Of a stretch of 6,062 bases of DNA, positions 1 through 6,062 are shown in pieces. The stretch is from IMG/VR virus record IMGVR_UViG_2713896780_000028. One strand, written 5' to 3'. Position 1 is the first letter of the stretch, and each line of letters starts with the position of its first letter. This stretch comes from a virus. Taxonomy: Duplodnaviria; Heunggongvirae; Uroviricota; Caudoviricetes. A program made the position numbers and the translations under genes. The notes under the pieces were generated by a model. The model was not told the origin of the DNA. It ran no database searches and saw nothing but the letters and a program-made list of their open reading frames with translations.

Positions 1-71
1 GACCACTGCCTGGTAACTCGAAGTATTGCCCTGCATTCTGTGGGGCGGGGTGGGTTGGTATGAAAAGAAGG

Positions 72-110
72 ATACCCATAGGTATTTAAAAAGTAAATAC
101 CCATGGGTAA
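72..110. promoter_or_regulatory. Pair of palindromic operator-like 12-mers downstream of the repressor gene (putative OL-like sites)
   Basis: TACCCATAGGTA at 73-84 (one central mismatch from perfect dyad) and TACCCATGGGTA at 98-109 (perfect palindrome), centres 25 bp apart. The same core ACCnnTGGGTA recurs twice in the repressor/cro intergenic region. Confidence 0.4.
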
Positions 111-151
111 ATTTTTGCGGTGTCTTAACTGGTGACTAGTTGTTTGGTGAG

Positions 152-571
152 CTATGATGCGTTTTGTGCTTTCTTTTTACGGATTTCTTCGTAGATCATA
201 TTGTAATACTGTTTTTTCTCTTCAAGAGTTTTTAATAATTTATCCGCTTCACTTTCTGGCAGTTCGTCTAAGAGATCTAAAAAAATACGTTGTCGTGGCG
301 TTAGAACCCTTGTTTCATAACTGGAGGCTGTGTTCGTTGATGATGAAACGATACCATCCATCCATCCCCGGGGTAACCCAAAGGACTCTTCGATAATCTC
401 CACCATATCATCAGCGATCCGTTTTTTTCCCTTTTTCCCCTCTGGGTACAACATTCTTGATACATAAGAAGGCTCGCGCCCGATCTTTCTGGCCACGTTA
501 ACCGCTTTACCATCGCATTTCTCATCACGAATTTTGATGAGTTGCTGTCGTCTAAATTCATATTTGTCCAT
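152..571 (-). CDS. Prophage CI-like repressor, HTH DNA-binding protein (139 aa), no LexA/S24 peptidase domain
   Basis: ORF MDKYEFRRQQLIKIRDEKCDGKAVNVARKIGREPSYVSRML... with an HTH-like segment (AVNVARKIGREPSYVSRML). It is divergent from a Cro-like gene and flanked by repeated palindromic sites. The C-terminus is charged/helical (EADKLLKTLEEKKQYY) rather than a peptidase domain. Confidence 0.7.
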   Translation of the reverse strand: MDKYEFRRQQLIKIRDEKCDGKAVNVARKIGREPSYVSRMLYPEGKKGKKRIADDMVEIIEESFGLPRGWMDGIVSSSTNTASSYETRVLTPRQRIFLDLLDELPESEADKLLKTLEEKKQYYNMIYEEIRKKKAQNAS

Positions 572-606
572 AGGTAAATAATAGATGCGATTACCGCAAG
601 GTAAAC

Positions 607-646
607 AACCTGTGGGTATTGACTTTTGTTTACCTGTGGGTATTCT
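607..646. promoter_or_regulatory. Divergent promoter/operator region between repressor and cro-like gene (putative OR with PR-like promoter)
   Basis: AACCTGTGGGTA (607-618) and TACCTGTGGGTA (631-642), 24 bp apart, related to the 73-84 and 98-109 palindromes. A -35-like TTGACT (619-624) and -10-like TATTCT (641-646) are interleaved with these sites and face the cro-like gene. An AAGGAG Shine-Dalgarno at 661-666 precedes the ATG at 672. Confidence 0.45.
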
Positions 647-671
647 TTGCTGTGTTTACTAAGGAGTAGCT

Positions 672-953
672 ATGGAAGAATTAAGAATATTTCTCAATTC
701 TCTTTCGTCAGATGAACAGCGTATGTTTGCATGCGAGTGTGGTACCAGCATCGGTTATCTAAGAAAGGCATTGAGTAAAGGTCAAGTGTTAGGGGCATCG
801 TTATGTGTCCTTATTGAGCGAGCCAGTAATGGTGAAGTTACACGTCAGCAACTAAGGCCTTTTGATTGGATGAATATTTGGCCCGAGCTGGAAGATACCA
901 AAACGTTAACACAACCACTTTCTAGGAGCTTGATTCATGAAAATCAAGCATGA
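672..953 (+). CDS. Cro-like HTH protein, YdaS family (93 aa)
   Basis: Strong SD AAGGAG 5 nt upstream. Translation contains GTSIGYLRKALSKGQ...IERASNGEVTRQQLRPFDW, resembling the Cro/YdaS-type HTH pattern. It is the first gene of the rightward operon, divergent from the repressor. Confidence 0.7.
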   Translation: MEELRIFLNSLSSDEQRMFACECGTSIGYLRKALSKGQVLGASLCVLIERASNGEVTRQQLRPFDWMNIWPELEDTKTLTQPLSRSLIHENQA

Positions 954-1328
954 ACACATCCGCATGGCGATGAATGCCTGGGCNNNNNNNNNNNNNNNNN
1001 NNNNNNNNNNNNNNNNNNNNNNNNNNNNNNNNNCGACAGCCATCCGGAAGCCCTGGCTCGCAATACCCAGAAAATTTTCCGCTGGGTAGAGAAAGACACC
1101 CCTGATGCTGTTGAAAAAATGCAGGCTCTGTTACCGGCGATCGAAAAGGCGATGCCGCCTTTGCTGGTGGCCCGTATGCGCAGCCACAGTTCTGAATATT
1201 ACCGTGAGATCGTCGAACGGAGGGATCGGCTGGTGAAGGATGTCGATGATTTTGTTGCGTCAGCGGTTGTTTTGTATGACCAGATGAATCGCGGCGGCCC
1301 GGCAGGGAATGCTGTGGTGATGCACTAA
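937..1328 (+). CDS. YdaT-like prophage protein (putative toxin/cell-division inhibitor family), interrupted by an assembly gap
   Basis: ATG at 937 overlaps the stop of the upstream gene by 17 nt (MKIKHEHIRMAMNAW...). After the N-run an open frame from 1035 reads DSHPEALARNTQKIFRWVEKDTPDAVEKMQALLPAIEKAMPPLLVARMRSHSSEYYREIVERRDRLVKDVDDFVASAVVLYDQMNRGGPAGNAVVMH and stops at 1326-1328. The two pieces are in different frames only because the gap length is arbitrary. Confidence 0.55.
984..1033. other. Assembly gap (50 N)
   Basis: Run of exactly 50 N inside the YdaT-like ORF. Confidence 0.95.
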
Positions 1329-1350
1329 AAGCACGGTGTTCGGGGGTTTT

Positions 1351-2319
1351 ATGAGCAGCAAGCTTCATGGTCTTGTCTGGGAAGGGTGCGCCTTCACCGG
1401 CATGATCTTATCCAGGGTGGCGGTTATGGCCCGTCTTGCAGACTACAGCAATGACGAGGGCGTGTCATGGCCTGCCATTGAAACTATCCGGCGTCAGATC
1501 GGTGCAAGAAGTGAATCCACAGTGAAATCGGCTATTGCAGAACTGGCGAAAGAGGGCTGGCTGACGAAGGAAGAGCGTAAGGTCGGTGGGCGTAATGTAA
1601 GCAATATCTATCGGCTTAATGTGGAAAAACTCGAAGCAGCTGCGGCGGCGGCGCGTGAGTCATATAAACCGAAAAGAAAAATTAGCCCGGCAAAAAATGA
1701 CCCGTTAACAGTTGACCCGTCAAATATTGACCCCTCAACGGTTGACCCGTCAAATTTTGATGGATCAACTGTTGATAAAAAACTGCCGATTAGGGGGGCG
1801 ATGATTGACCCCGATCCGTCAGTATTAAAACCTGATCCGTCAGATAAAAGATCTTCTTGTCCGGACGTTTCACTGCCGGACGAAAAACAAGCATCACCGG
1901 TCGAGCGATTTCTGGAGAAACACCCGGATGCGCATACCTGGAATGTACCAAAGCGACAGTGGGGAACCCGGGAGGATTTGACGTGTGCACAGTGGATCTG
2001 GGGACGGGTTGTTGCGTTGTATGAACAGGCCGCCAGTGATGATGGGGAGGTATCACGCCCCAGAGAGCCTAACTGGACGACCTGGGCGAATGATGTGCGC
2101 ATGATGCGTATGCTGGATGGACGTAGTCACCGACAGATTTGTGAAATGTTTGGGCGTGTTCAACGGGATTCGTTCTGGGTAAAAAACATCATGAGTCCGG
2201 CAAAACTCCGGGAAAAATGGGATGAACTGGTTATCCGCCTGGGGCGTTCGCCCGCGCAGCGTTGCGTGAATCATATTTCTGAACCGGATACCGAAATTCC
2301 GCCGGGTTTCAGGGGGTAG
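1351..2319 (+). CDS. Replication initiator, lambda O-like / YdaU-like (N-terminal HTH, iteron-encoded linker, C-terminal domain)
   Basis: ATG at 1351 is preceded by GGGGG (1342-1346); the ORF track's GTG at 1336 is less likely. N-terminus VMARLADYSNDEGVSWPAIETIRRQIGARSESTVKSAIAELAKEGWL is HTH-like. The middle carries a DPxxV peptide repeat encoded by DNA iterons. The stop at 2317-2319 lies 6 nt before the next gene's ATG. Confidence 0.75.
   Translation: MSSKLHGLVWEGCAFTGMILSRVAVMARLADYSNDEGVSWPAIETIRRQIGARSESTVKSAIAELAKEGWLTKEERKVGGRNVSNIYRLNVEKLEAAAAAARESYKPKRKISPAKNDPLTVDPSNIDPSTVDPSNFDGSTVDKKLPIRGAMIDPDPSVLKPDPSDKRSSCPDVSLPDEKQASPVERFLEKHPDAHTWNVPKRQWGTREDLTCAQWIWGRVVALYEQAASDDGEVSRPREPNWTTWANDVRMMRMLDGRSHRQICEMFGRVQRDSFWVKNIMSPAKLREKWDELVIRLGRSPAQRCVNHISEPDTEIPPGFRG
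1698..1775. repeat. Origin-like iteron array: five to six direct repeats with 15-bp period, each containing the dyad TTGACnnGTCAA
   Basis: Units of TGACCCGTTAACAGT / TGACCCGTCAAATAT / TGACCCCTCAACGGT / TGACCCGTCAAATTT / TGATGGATCAACTGT starting at 1698, 1713, 1728, 1743 and 1758, followed by an A-rich stretch (gataaaaaactg). They sit inside the O-like gene, as lambda ori sits inside O. Confidence 0.6.
1805..1850. repeat. Second short direct-repeat pair next to the iterons (GATCCGTCAG, 21 bp apart), each followed by an AT-rich segment
   Basis: gatccgtcagtattaaaa (1813-1830) and gatccgtcagataaaag (1834-1850); possibly part of the same origin. Confidence 0.35.
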
Positions 2320-2325
2320 CGCACC

Positions 2326-3066
2326 ATGAAAAACATTACGTCAGGTGGTGTTCTGGCAAGAGTCAGCAGATTTGTGCCGCAGGATGCAATCCCTCCGTAC
2401 CGTACGGTGGCGGAGTGGCGGGAATGGCAGCTTGCTGAAGGGCGTAAGCGAAGCGAGGAGGTTAATCGTCTGAATCATCAGACGCGGGTTGAAAAAATCA
2501 TTAACCGCTCCGGTATCCAGCCGCTTCACCGGAAGTGTACGTTCGGTAACTACCGGGTGCAGAACGATGGTCAGCGCCATGCCCTGAGTCAGGCGAAATC
2601 CATTGCGGCAGAGCTGGAAGGCGGCTGTACGAATTTTGTTTTCAGTGGCAGGCCTGGCACAGGAAAAAACCACCTGGCGGCGGCTATTGGCAACCACCTT
2701 CTGGCGAAAGGTCGCAGTGTGATTGTGATAACAGTGGCGGATGTGATGCTGGCGTTACATGGCAGCTACGACAACAAAAACTCGGGCGAAAAATTTTTGC
2801 AGGGATTGTGTGGCGTTGACCTGCTGGTACTGGATGAAATTGGCATGCAACGGGATACGCGTAATGAGCAGGTCACGCTGAATCAGATTGTTGACCGCAG
2901 AACGGCATCGTTACTCAGTGTGGGGATGCTGACAAATCTTAACCATGCAGCGATGAATACACTTCTCGGCGAGCGGGTGATGGACCGCATGTCCATGAAC
3001 GGTGGTCGCTGGGTGACGTTTAACTGGGAGAGCTGGCGTCCGAACGTCAGCCAGCACAGGAACTGA
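2326..3066 (+). CDS. DnaC-like helicase loader / phage replication protein (IstB-like AAA+ ATPase, 246 aa)
   Basis: Walker [16 protein letters not shown] and Walker [11 protein letters not shown]-like AGGGGG at 2311-2316. Tightly coupled to the upstream initiator gene. Length and motifs match the DnaC-like proteins of Rac-type prophages (YdaV-like). Confidence 0.9.
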
Positions 3067-3095
3067 GAAGTAATTTTTATCCGGAGGAAGTTTTA

Positions 3096-4026
3096 ATGGA
3101 AACCGTATTGCATGCACTGAAAGCGATGGGTAAAGCCAATTCTGTTGAACTGGCGGCGCGGCTTGATATCAGCCGTGAAGAAGTTCTCAACGAACTGTGG
3201 GAACTCAAAAAAAATGGCGTTGTTGATAAAACGGGTCACACCTGGTTTCTGGCTGGCGAAGGTGAATCCCGGGTAACCGAAGAGCNNNNNNNNNNNNNNN
3301 NNNNNNNNNNNNNNNNNNNNNNNNNNNNNNNNNNNCAACGGGGCGGCTGGCACGCGTTAATCAGAACGGTAAATTTCGTTACTGCATACCGGGCGCTGAT
3401 TTACCGGCAGAGCCGGAAGCTGCATCGGTAACGGAAACCGATAGTAAAGCCTTTCCTCAGCCAACAGGTGTTGCGTTACCAGTCCGGGAAGCGGAAACAC
3501 AGGAAGAAATAAAAACTGAAAGTGTGGCGGTCACAGTGCAGTCACAGCCGTCGTTCACCAGAAAGCATCNNNNNNNNNNNNNNNNNNNNNNNNNNNNNNN
3601 NNNNNNNNNNNNNNNNNNNCAACGGGGCGGCTGGCACGCGTTAATCAGAACGGTAAATTTCGTTACTGCATGCCGGGCGATAATTTACCAGCAGAGCCGA
3701 AAGCCGCGCTGGTAACGGAAAGTGATGGTAAGGCCTTTCCTCAGCCAGCAGGTGCTGCGTTACCAGTCCGGGAAGCCGCAACACAGGAAGAAATTAAAAC
3801 AGAAACTGTGGCGGACATTGTGCAGCCGTTGCCATCGTTTACCGAAACGCAAGCAGATGAGCTGATTTTTCCGTCCCTTCGCAGGGCAAACCTGGCGCTG
3901 CGCAGGGCGAAAAGTGATGTTCAGAAGTGGGAGCGAGTCTGCGCCGCGCTGCGGGAGCTGAACAAGCACCGGGATATTGTTCGACAGATTACTGATTCTT
4001 CCCGCCGTGTTGTATCGGAAAAGTGA
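3096..4026 (+). CDS. Prophage winged-helix protein with internal tandem repeats (recalled as DUF1627-like), interrupted by two assembly gaps
   Basis: SD GGAGG at 3083-3087. N-terminus [54 protein letters not shown] is wHTH-like. After each gap an open frame reads [16 protein letters not shown](I/M)[35 protein letters not shown]... (frame of 3338 and of 3622). The C-terminus ...[41 protein letters not shown] stops at 4024-4026. The frames are consistent with one ORF if each true gap length is a multiple of 3. Confidence 0.6.
3286..3335. other. Assembly gap (50 N)
   Basis: Exactly 50 N, followed by sequence identical to that after the next gap. Confidence 0.95.
3336..3569 (+). repeat. Tandem coding repeat, copy 1 (about 234 bp visible)
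   Basis: The first 52 nt are identical to 3620-3671, then about 85-90% identical through 3853, with a 6-nt indel near the end. Confidence 0.8.
3570..3619. other. Assembly gap (50 N)
   Basis: Exactly 50 N between the two repeat copies. Confidence 0.95.
3620..3853 (+). repeat. Tandem coding repeat, copy 2
   Basis: Begins with the same caacggggcggctggcacgcgttaatcagaacggtaaatttcgttactgcat as copy 1. Confidence 0.8.
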
Positions 4027-4041
4027 TTGCCGGAGGCGCTT

Positions 4042-4455
4042 ATGGCAAAAGTATTTACACAGGAAGAGCGGGAAAAAATTAAAGGGCAGGTTGTTGAGCT
4101 AGTACGCCGGAGTGGGCGCGAGACGTTACGGCAACTGGAAGCCAAGACAGGTGCGACAAGATATCTGATGAGCGTTCTTGCCAGAGAGCTGGTTGCCAGT
4201 GGCGATGTATACAACTCTGGTTACGGGTTATTCCCATCTGAACAGGCTCGTAAGGACTGGCAAAACGCCCGCAAAAAACTATCGAGGGCAAAACTGAAGA
4301 AACCGGTTGTGGTTGATCCTGACCTTATCTGGTCATTACCAGACGGAGAAATACGCCGCTATGACAGGCAATTGAACATAATTTGTAGTGAGTGCCGTAA
4401 CAGTGAAGTGATGCAGCGAGTTTTGATATTTTACACAGGAGTAATGATGGAATAG
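4042..4455 (+). CDS. Hypothetical prophage protein (137 aa), possible small winged-helix domain
   Basis: ATG at 4042 with SD GGAGG at 4032-4036; the ORF-track TTG start at 4027 is less likely. Translation MAKVFTQEEREKIKGQVVELVRRSGRETLRQLEAKTGATRYLMSVLARELVASGDVY... Stop at 4453-4455. Confidence 0.65.
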   Translation: MAKVFTQEEREKIKGQVVELVRRSGRETLRQLEAKTGATRYLMSVLARELVASGDVYNSGYGLFPSEQARKDWQNARKKLSRAKLKKPVVVDPDLIWSLPDGEIRRYDRQLNIICSECRNSEVMQRVLIFYTGVMME

Positions 4456-4806
4456 TGAAAATAACATGAAACCTTTGGATTCTGGTGTTTCAGTGGATGG
4501 GAAAAGAGCAGATACATAGAAAATGAATAGCAATAATTCACAGTCTGGATGTTGTTTGTATGCTTATAAAATGATCCTAGTATGCATTGCCGGAGTTGAA
4601 TCAGCTCCAATGAAGAAACTGAGAGGAGTATTTAGAAGATAGCTAAATGGATGTAATTATTAGTATCTAAAAAATAGTATTTTTGAAATGGGTCTAAGAA
4701 CACAACAATGTACAAATGAGAAGTTATCTTTTAATATGTTCAAAGACCCATTAGGATTGATATCAGTTATGTTAGCTAGATTGATAAAGTGATTACATAT
4801 TTTCTG

Positions 4807-5580
4807 TTATATGCTGAAATGAATAATGCTATTCCAGAGTGCAGCAGAGAAAGTCTCCTGATGATTGAGCTCTGGAAATTGTACAATAGAAAAATTACTG
4901 TATTTTTCTGTCAAAATATTTCTCAAAACAGATTCCGCTTTGATGGCTTCAGGATATAAAGATGCGGAGTAATCAAGGCTAAGATTTCCGTTAAGCAAGC
5001 ATATACTTTTAGTGTGCTTTGATTCTGATATATCATCTTTAATTATCTTGATGATTCTTTCATTCTGCCATAGAAGTGATGGTGCAGATATATAATAATA
5101 GTTAAAGCATGAATTATTTTTTAAGCAATCAAGCACAAAAATAGCACCTAGCGAGTGCCCCCATATACCGATTCTGGAACTGTTCGGAGCAATAGTACTA
5201 ACCCATGGCATGATCTGAGTTAGTAATAATTCTCGGAAAGACTGGCTTCCTCCACCAGTAAAGTAGATCCATGCTGGTTTAGAGTTATCAACAATAGCAT
5301 TTTCACCATCAGGAGTATAATCGTAAGCACGGCGATGAATGCTAAGGTTATTCCAAGATTCATAACCAAGTGTAACTAACACTGGTGGATTGGGTAGTGC
5401 ATCAATAACAGGCAGAATATCAGAAATGTAATTGTTGGCACTATTCCCATCAAGTATATAAAGAGTTGCATTATTTTTTTTAATGTTTTTTGGAGTAAAA
5501 ATACATATTTTATATTTGGTGTCATGGTTAATTGAGTTAAATATGCGTGTTTGACAATGAATGTCCATATGTTTAGTCAT
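4807..5580 (-). CDS. Alpha/beta hydrolase, putative esterase of the Fes/IroD/IroE type (257 aa), no signal peptide
   Basis: SD GGGGAGA 4 nt upstream of the ATG on the minus strand. Motifs: YILDGNS, RRAYDYTP, GGGSQSFRELLLTQIMPWV, nucleophile elbow GIWGHSLGAIFVLD (GxSxG), YYYISAPSL, FPELNHQETF (candidate catalytic His). N-terminus MTKHMDIHCQTRIFNSINHDTKYK has no hydrophobic signal or anchor. Very low GC. Confidence 0.75.
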   Translation of the reverse strand: MTKHMDIHCQTRIFNSINHDTKYKICIFTPKNIKKNNATLYILDGNSANNYISDILPVIDALPNPPVLVTLGYESWNNLSIHRRAYDYTPDGENAIVDNSKPAWIYFTGGGSQSFRELLLTQIMPWVSTIAPNSSRIGIWGHSLGAIFVLDCLKNNSCFNYYYISAPSLLWQNERIIKIIKDDISESKHTKSICLLNGNLSLDYSASLYPEAIKAESVLRNILTEKYSNFSIVQFPELNHQETFSAALWNSIIHFSI

Positions 5581-5591
5581 GCGTTCTCCCC

Positions 5592-5783
5592 ATGAGCATT
5601 AAAGGATGCTTAAGATATGCTATGTCACTGATAAAAAATTTGTTGTGTGTGTTTAGTTATTTTATCTACCTCCATTATGATTTAAGACTGATATATGTTA
5701 TCAGCAAAGGTACATCGTTATTATTTTACCTGTCAATACATTTGATATTGATTATCGTTTACATCGCTTGCTTAGGAAATTGA
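5592..5783 (+). CDS. Possible small hydrophobic protein (63 aa), divergent from the esterase gene; may be spurious
   Basis: ORF MSIKGCLRYAMSLIKNLLCVFSYFIYLHYDLRLIYVISKGTSLLFYLSIHLILIIVYIACLGN. It is an uninterrupted 63-codon frame in stop-rich AT DNA, but has no convincing SD and is low-complexity. Confidence 0.2.
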   Translation: MSIKGCLRYAMSLIKNLLCVFSYFIYLHYDLRLIYVISKGTSLLFYLSIHLILIIVYIACLGN

Positions 5784-6062
5784 AGGCAGGTAACTATCAT
5801 GTCAATGAACTAACCCACAGTCTAACGTACTTCTTTCCCCAATCACCAACAACCAAATTCCTGTTATCACCACTGGGATTTTGGCGCAACTTCATGGTGC
5901 AGAGGTAAATAGCATCAAGCAAAATCTCTTTTTCCGTTGTTGTCCTTATGGGACGTCTGTCTTTCTGACCGATTTCATATTGGCGAGGTAATGGGAAGTT
6001 AAGTAGAATAGCTGCGGGTGCTTGAGGCTATCTGCCTCGGGCATGAACACCAACGGCAGATA

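Follow-up and report, generated by a model that had tools for sequence, protein, structure and literature searches.

The 6,062 nt of IMG/VR virus record IMGVR_UViG_2713896780_000028 analysed here (hereafter, the window) cover the early region of a lambdoid (Rac/Qin/Sp4-like) Escherichia coli prophage. Between the gene for a DUF977 protein and the start of a hok/sok locus, this region carries an AT-rich island whose one substantial gene lies on the minus strand. Here, we describe this island, the variable slot in which it sits, and the product of its gene, a 257-aa protein that sequence and predicted fold place among the siderophore trilactone esterases.

The AT-rich island and its slot

GC content amounts to 33.3% over 4456-5800 against 52.1% over 1101-4455, a difference of ~14 binomial standard deviations for 1345 nt, and GC at third codon positions (GC3) is 28% in the minus-strand gene vs 48-61% in the genes of the replication module. 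A first-pass annotation, made from the letters alone, had described a fall to 27-30% located exactly at the stop codon at 4455. The low-GC block itself was borne out, but the quoted figure applies only to its local minimum—200-nt windows within the island range from 28.5% to 41.5%—and the position of the drop was not: GC declines gradually from ~4350-4400, that is, within the final 100 nt of the DUF977 gene. The same annotation had pointed to a single substantial gene, convergent with the phage operon and equipped with a strong Shine-Dalgarno sequence, and here we agree. The minus-strand frame 4807-5580 is the sole long open reading frame (ORF) of the island with any homologue, faces the plus-strand DUF977 gene (4027-4455), is preceded by GGGGAG and, standing alone on its strand, is not co-transcribed with a phage function.

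Between the two convergent genes lies a non-coding spacer in which the two known alleles of the island are only ~75-80% identical, with indels, near the neutral level expected from a synonymous divergence (dS) of 0.31. Rfam yielded zero matches inside the island at E<=1. Neither direct nor inverted repeats were found bracketing it and there is, therefore, no sign of a transposon- or integrase-type insertion.

Our comparison set consisted of 15 loci from related prophages, all flanked by DUF1627-DUF977 on one side and by hokD-DUF968-rusA-Q on the other. Across this set, the DUF977-hok interval measures 101-3841 bp and has at least eight different contents (Table 1), among them a complete Menshen NsnABC defence system. 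The interval is a cargo hotspot in Rac/Qin/Sp4-like lambdoid prophages, as had been suspected from the window alone. Aligning the loci also bore out the expectation that related prophages with these flanks lack the segment, which is consequently not conserved backbone. As for its description as an indel relative to conserved flanks, presence and absence are as predicted, but a clean insertion it is not, since the island substitutes for other cargo; in one prophage with a 100% identical left backbone, seven small plus-strand genes take its place. A proposed parallel with trkG in Rac did not hold, given that trkG of K-12 Rac, a plus-strand gene, is located beyond ydaW and the lysis remnants rzpR/rzoR, and hence not at the equivalent position.

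The edges of the slot are well delimited. Homology to island-free prophages is lost at 4421-4433, within the final 6-9 DUF977 codons, and is found again from 5961-5997, where the hok/sok leader lies. DUF977 proteins of different prophages are conserved up to a ...QRVL.FY.G motif and then end in unrelated tails of 5-9 residues, arguing that the recombination junction of the slot is located inside the last codons of this gene. The island is present behind at least three different immunity/replication modules, and its GC content (34%) is the lowest of all cargoes in the slot, the others ranging from 38-48%. These features point to cassette replacement by illegitimate recombination at the edges, followed by spread via homologous recombination in the flanks.

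The company that the island keeps bears on its possible role. Besides NsnABC, the slot holds in another prophage a TetR/deaminase/NTP pyrophosphatase/SIR2 set that may be a nucleotide-targeting defence set (its adenosine deaminase matches the PADLOC CARF-ADA model, E=3e-36), and a single low-GC gene on the opposite strand at such a site could be an anti-phage or superinfection-exclusion determinant. We consider this very unlikely, as the first-pass suggestion to run a defence predictor turned up nothing that marks the gene as anti-phage: PADLOC-DB v2 contained no family matching the esterase or its neighbours at E<=0.1, while it detected NsnABC, our positive control, at the same slot. Moreover, the gene has no partner, and fold and residues (see below) indicate hydrolysis of a small-molecule ester. 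Two minus-strand hypothetical genes in the slot of a prophage from E. coli that makes Shiga toxin (STEC) likewise had no PADLOC match and represent uncharacterised cargo.

Table 1 Features of the window and contents of the DUF977-hok slot in related prophages (coordinates refer to the window unless another locus is named)
Feature	Position	Strand	Remarks
cI-like repressor	152-571	minus	
YdaS/Cro-like gene	672-953		
O-like helix-turn-helix (HTH) replication protein	1336-2319		
DnaC/IstB-like ATPase	2326-3066		
DUF1627 gene	3096-4026		
DUF977 gene, conserved left flank	4027-4455	plus	Pfam PF06163, E=4e-27; last 6-9 codons and stop form the variable junction
Cargo island proper, AT-rich, only in esterase-carrying prophages	4434-5833		34% GC; two alleles align from ~4400 to ~5833, then diverge
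Non-coding spacer separating DUF977 from the convergent esterase gene	4456-4806 (351 nt)		31% GC
Extended stem-loop, possible 3' end/terminator element	4687-4752	minus	~55 nt past the esterase stop; U6 run ~12 nt later
Gene for 257-aa leaderless IroE/PfeE/BesA-family serine esterase	4807-5580	minus	phmmer, AlphaFold2 model, Foldseek
Shine-Dalgarno GGGGAG, 5 nt from ATG	5586-5591	minus	invariant in 9/9 allele copies
Candidate sigma-70-like promoter (-35 ATAACA, 16-nt spacer, -10 CATAAT)	5674-5701	minus	consensus scan 9/12; 5' untranslated region would be ~90 nt
Fur-box-like palindrome TGATATATGTTATCA over the candidate -35	5689-5703		3 mismatches to TGATAATNATTATCA; invariant in all alleles
Second Fur-box-like site TGATATTGATTATCG	5743-5757		2 mismatches; one substitution in 90% alleles
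Remnant 5' end of an ORF6N/Ant antirepressor gene, immediately beyond the island	5832-5925	plus	blastn 76-82% identity to annotated ORF6N / antirepressor Ant genes of other E. coli prophages
Start of conserved right flank: hokD/sok type I toxin-antitoxin leader, running off the window	5961-6062	plus	88-94% identical in island-free prophages
Slot content: nothing			BL21
Slot content: QueH			
Slot content: arrays of small co-directional nin-like genes			
Slot content: two overlapping hypothetical genes (153 and 294 aa), just upstream of hok	L005 7637-8970	minus	STEC prophage
Slot content: complete Menshen NsnA/B/C defence system	L093 4979-8182		Rac-like prophage, strain SL112; PADLOC E 1e-90 to 1e-123
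Slot content: minus-strand TetR, then adenosine deaminase, non-canonical nucleoside triphosphate (NTP) pyrophosphatase, frameshifted SIR2	L095 5021-8093		strain Br_178_kylling
Slot content: esterase island of the window			

A leaderless member of the siderophore esterase family

In the databases, the product of the minus-strand gene (RefSeq WP_000160654) is labelled 'alpha/beta hydrolase' only. A phmmer search against the PDB returned IroE (E=5e-26, residues 8-253), followed by Bacillus BES (9e-13), PfeE (1.5e-11) and then fungal siderophore esterases. An AlphaFold2 model built on 60 homologues reached a predicted local distance difference test (pLDDT) score of 90 and a predicted template modelling (pTM) score of 0.91; it was used in place of a single-sequence model, which was unusable (pLDDT 47). 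When the structure was searched with Foldseek, the best 30 PDB matches were all siderophore esterases, with template modelling (TM) scores of 0.69-0.81, and Fes and generic esterases followed ~8 orders of magnitude behind. By sequence and predicted fold alike, the protein belongs with the siderophore trilactone esterases (IroE/PfeE/Cee/BesA).

The residues expected of such an enzyme are in place. In the phmmer alignment, D44, R84, S143, and H240 coincide with Asp90, Arg130, Ser189, and His287 of IroE, of which Asp90 and Arg130 were reportedly found to be important by Larsen et al. in 2006. The predicted catalytic Ser143 is part of a GHSLG motif and the predicted catalytic histidine is His240; in the 60 homologues, D44, R84, and G141 are invariant and H142, S143, and H240 nearly so (>=90%). 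In IroE, Ser189-His287 form the catalytic dyad (PMC10515146). Because the enzyme has kept IroE's Ser-His dyad together with its Asp/Arg pair, it is most likely an active serine esterase.

Judged by its sequence, the protein is a divergent, AT-biased family member. A scan of representatives of ~15 billion proteins revealed a gap between its own E. coli cluster (>=87%) and relatives at ~30-40% identity over the matched stretches, the best species-level relatives being from Mixta, Pantoea, and Acinetobacter (30-36%). NCBIfam contained no matches for it. IroE—the salmochelin/enterobactin trilactone hydrolase of iroBCDEN (PDB 2GZR/2GZS)—is the best sequence match among solved structures and shares the single-domain alpha/beta hydrolase fold (TM 0.77-0.81), the dyad, and the Asp90/Arg130 equivalents. 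Identity is only ~26-30%, however, and, unlike IroE, the window esterase has no N-terminal membrane anchor or signal—and hence presumably another compartment—and its gene (34% GC) is prophage-encoded and outside any iro cluster. PfeE of Pseudomonas aeruginosa is among the best fold matches (E ~3e-19); with PfeE and with Cee of Campylobacter, the protein has in common the family and a stand-alone, esterase-only architecture with iron-regulated relatives, yet those two are exported, periplasmic, and encoded beside a TonB-dependent receptor gene (PMC8001512), while the window esterase has neither a leader nor a receptor neighbour. The bacillibactin esterase BesA/BES of Bacillus (PDB 2QM0), at ~20% identity, is the second-best PDB sequence match. 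As a family enzyme without a leader, and thus expected in the cytoplasm, the protein resembles BesA, Fes, and IroD; Fes and IroD, in contrast, possess an extra N-terminal lid domain (~400 aa) that is absent here, and their Foldseek target TM is only 0.43-0.47.

The missing leader sets the protein apart within its own alignment. Fifty of 57 non-E. coli homologues are 25-65 residues longer and contain an N-terminal hydrophobic segment, whereas the first 45 residues of the window esterase include no such segment (maximum KD12 0.0, vs 1.4-3.7 in those 50) and its N-terminus begins just before the first beta-strand. Truncation of the gene as the cause was ruled out, as there is no leader remnant upstream in any frame and both alleles use the same start. 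BesA and IroD act in the cytoplasm. In the absence of a signal peptide, the same is to be expected here, as in Fes, IroD, and BesA, and the esterase is presumably cytoplasmic. Its nearest family members from Gram-negative bacteria are exported proteins: PfeE and Cee cleave ferric enterobactin in the periplasm, Fes being cytoplasmic (PMC8001512), and IroE is periplasmic and linearises apo-siderophores (PMC7403778).

Among 5426 complete E. coli genomes, 471 carry the island; the copy is >=99% identical in 458 and a ~86% allele in the other 13, pig isolates among them. There was no match to it in 50,697 phage records, the single-protein scan of IMG/VR recovered only alleles of 89-100% on prophage contigs, and among the viral protein structures of BFVD none has a siderophore-esterase-like fold. 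The listed carriers mostly belong to O157:H7, O145, O26, O103, O111, and O121. A prophage-borne, low-GC, leaderless protein without a Sec signal, common in enterohaemorrhagic E. coli (EHEC) positive for the locus of enterocyte effacement, could also be a type III secreted effector. That would be highly improbable: the gene is not at a prophage-end effector locus, a few carriers are pig, fish, and other isolates without an EHEC serogroup label, no effector homology was seen, and the family has a bacterial, Fur-type context.

Candidate expression signals, selection and probable role

Upstream of the esterase gene, a consensus scan returned a candidate sigma-70-like promoter, of which both hexamers are invariant across alleles, and two Fur-box-like sites (Table 1). 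Two such sites in 220 nt were reached in 0.8% of local dinucleotide shuffles (P ~0.008, in a post-hoc test); the 19-bp Fur consensus had no match within 3 mismatches upstream of the gene. Fur boxes are more evident in the surrounding clade. Of the 80 closest homologues of other genera, 36 have one (<=3 mismatches, <=200 nt upstream), compared to three of 77 control regions, and in 13 of the 80 the box deviates by at most one mismatch, with six perfect. On the basis of these counts, the surrounding esterase clade is iron-regulated, as far as upstream sequences tell, even where the gene is solitary. Stand-alone, signal-peptide-bearing IroE-like genes of Acinetobacter, Pantoea, Klebsiella, and others very often have a near-perfect Fur box at ~-45 to -65 relative to the start codon, which characterises them as solitary periplasmic esterases under iron regulation.

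At the other end of the gene, an extended stem-loop on the esterase strand may constitute a 3' end or terminator element. Its inverted repeat spans 16 nt with 88% complementarity, and the RNA fold of 4650-4806 (minus strand) is more stable than expected (z=-2.84; 2 of 200 shuffles were as stable), but the changes in the second allele make the stem weaker instead of restoring its pairing.

The gene has also been maintained as a coding sequence. Although ~10% apart, the alleles both contain the full 257-codon frame, and the ratio of non-synonymous to synonymous divergence (dN/dS) is 0.17 at a dS of 0.31, the mark of purifying selection. The 250 nt upstream of the ATG are ~95% identical between alleles and thus more conserved than synonymous sites.

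On balance, we judge it probable that the segment at ~4434-5833 is a moron for lysogenic conversion and that its gene specifies a cytoplasmic esterase of catecholate trilactones, probably one that responds to iron. Phage morons have been reviewed in 'The moron comes of age' (PMC3594210). The likeness lies in variable presence between conserved flanks, deviant GC content, an orientation against the phage operon, and candidate transcription signals of its own; in contrast to a typical moron, the island substitutes for other cargo instead of being a simple add-on, its terminator is non-canonical, and expression in the lysogen is something we infer. In this proposal, a moron-type cassette with one autonomous, backwards-facing gene would have DUF977, of the replication module, on one side and the hok/sok-DUF968-rusA-Q block on the other. 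In the lysogen, the gene would probably be transcribed from its own conserved promoter, possibly under the control of Fur and iron. The cytoplasmic enzyme would cleave the ester backbone in catecholate siderophores—trilactones of the enterobactin type, either self-made or taken from neighbours—and so free iron or generate linear catecholates. During lytic growth, the early rightward transcript must, by gene order, cross this region in order to reach Q, and the esterase gene would therefore be subject to antisense transcription from the early operon.

Several observations weigh against this assignment, and they bear differently on its parts. With respect to regulation, sigma-70-like sites in the region are not more numerous than in shuffles, so that the promoter call is one at consensus level. 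Both Fur-like sites are weak matches (2-3 mismatches) identified post hoc, and they sit at -110 and -165 from the ATG, farther upstream than those of relatives (-45 to -65). A canonical intrinsic terminator was not found downstream of the gene. With respect to the substrate, identity to any characterised esterase is only ~20-30%, which leaves specificity insecure, and the protein scores 17 bits with Pfam PF00756 (Esterase), below the gathering cut-off of 22 that 59 of the 60 aligned homologues pass. Its neighbours are the DUF977 and hokD phage genes, with no gene for siderophore transport or synthesis linked. The same goes for two sampled close relatives (Mixta, Acinetobacter), in which the gene is solitary without a siderophore cluster alongside; genomic context there neither supports nor refutes the function.

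These latter points would suit an active esterase with a non-siderophore substrate, be it another cytoplasmic ester or thioester, and a role in detoxification or for the phage itself: the protein is only ~20-36% identical to any other, falls short of the Pfam threshold, lacks iron-uptake neighbours and, with the loss of the leader, would work in a compartment unlike that of its closest relatives. We regard this as unlikely, given that siderophore esterases alone make up the 30 best structural matches and leave generic esterases ~8 orders of magnitude behind, that the equivalents of the IroE-specific Asp90 and Arg130 are kept, and that the surrounding clade is associated with Fur boxes.

Other findings pertain to whether the gene is of any use at all. 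In O26:H11 strain 11368 (locus L117, 2008-4093), it is split by IS1203, and the same two-piece match recurs in several O26 and other genomes; the gene is, therefore, dispensable there. H-NS commonly silences AT-rich islands of E. coli and is likely to bind this one as well. Literature searches with WP_000160654 or with guessed Sakai locus tags (ECs1076-ECs1078) found no paper, and no expression data on the gene were found. A silent or decaying passenger, hitch-hiking with the prophage without current function for phage or host, would fit these facts, but is distinctly unlikely: dN/dS across alleles is low at appreciable dS, all alleles keep the full-length ORF and its start codon, conservation upstream exceeds that of synonymous sites, and the nearly identical copies (>=99%) in 458 genomes extend over several serogroups. 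One lead on expression was dropped as unverified, namely a microarray entry 'Z1341, unknown protein of CP-933M', induced together with exbB and chuU. Counting genes from Z1326 (dicB) to Z1344 (rusA) suggests that the esterase is Z1340 and that Z1341 is hokD, and a literature match to 'Z1340' proved to be an unrelated strain name.

The moron assignment can be taken one step further, if only tentatively and with more doubt than conviction on our part: Sp4/CP-933M-type prophages of EHEC might carry the first recognised phage-borne siderophore esterase, a leaderless, Fur-responsive enzyme of the IroE family with which lysogens could open catecholate trilactones in the cytoplasm by a second route, independent of Fes. 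The benefit to the host could then consist in xenosiderophore piracy or in making linear enterobactin trimers, which protect Salmonella from peroxide (PMC7403778); this would be a lysogenic conversion that serves fitness in the gut with respect to iron or oxidative stress. An enzyme of this kind would also be at odds with the same paper, according to which E. coli lacks an IroE homologue.

A moron in a nin-region hotspot is a well-known kind of element and the sequence is common in much-studied genomes; its family assignment and its leaderless, phage-borne state seem to have gone unrecognised so far. The gene has long been present in genomes of the major EHEC/STEC serogroups under its bare database label. 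A working cytoplasmic siderophore esterase would make it a phage-delivered component of EHEC iron metabolism and widen the list of moron functions. Whatever the role of the gene, the DUF977-hok interval is a compact and easily recognised slot that also bears defence systems, and will be useful for mining new cargo.

Flanking phage genes and assembly of the window

To the left of the island, the window contains immunity and replication genes (Table 1). The DUF977 and DUF1627 proteins, and a 63-aa ORF at 5592-5783, had zero matches in NCBIfam or PADLOC. Positions 3620-6062 are 100% identical to the O157:H7 prophage adjoining yccA, which is CP-933M in EDL933 and goes by the name of Sp4 in Sakai. 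There, the gene order is DUF1627, DUF977, esterase (minus strand), a gene fragment, hokD, DUF968, rusA, and Q.

The left part of the window, 1-3285, has a different match, sharing 100% identity with a prophage of strain 2013C-4225 that lacks the island. Three runs of exactly 50 N interrupt the sequence (984-1033, 3286-3335, and 3570-3619), and the 234 nt between the last two (3336-3569) are an extra copy, 87% identical, of the DUF1627 segment 3620-3853. The entire window was not found in any one complete genome. As its two parts match different prophages, either the window is a genuine recombinant with its crossover in DUF1627, or it reflects a mis-join during scaffolding or an artefact of masking.

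To the right, the ORF6N/Ant vestige at the island's edge, annotated as a partial pseudogene by PGAP, is a scar of earlier cargo turnover. Within the conserved flank that follows, a partial Rfam sok match (6016-6062, E=6e-5) is cut at the window end, and hokD is annotated ~125 nt past this end in identical loci. A terminator-like hairpin is located on the plus strand at 5941-5955, just upstream of the hok/sok leader.

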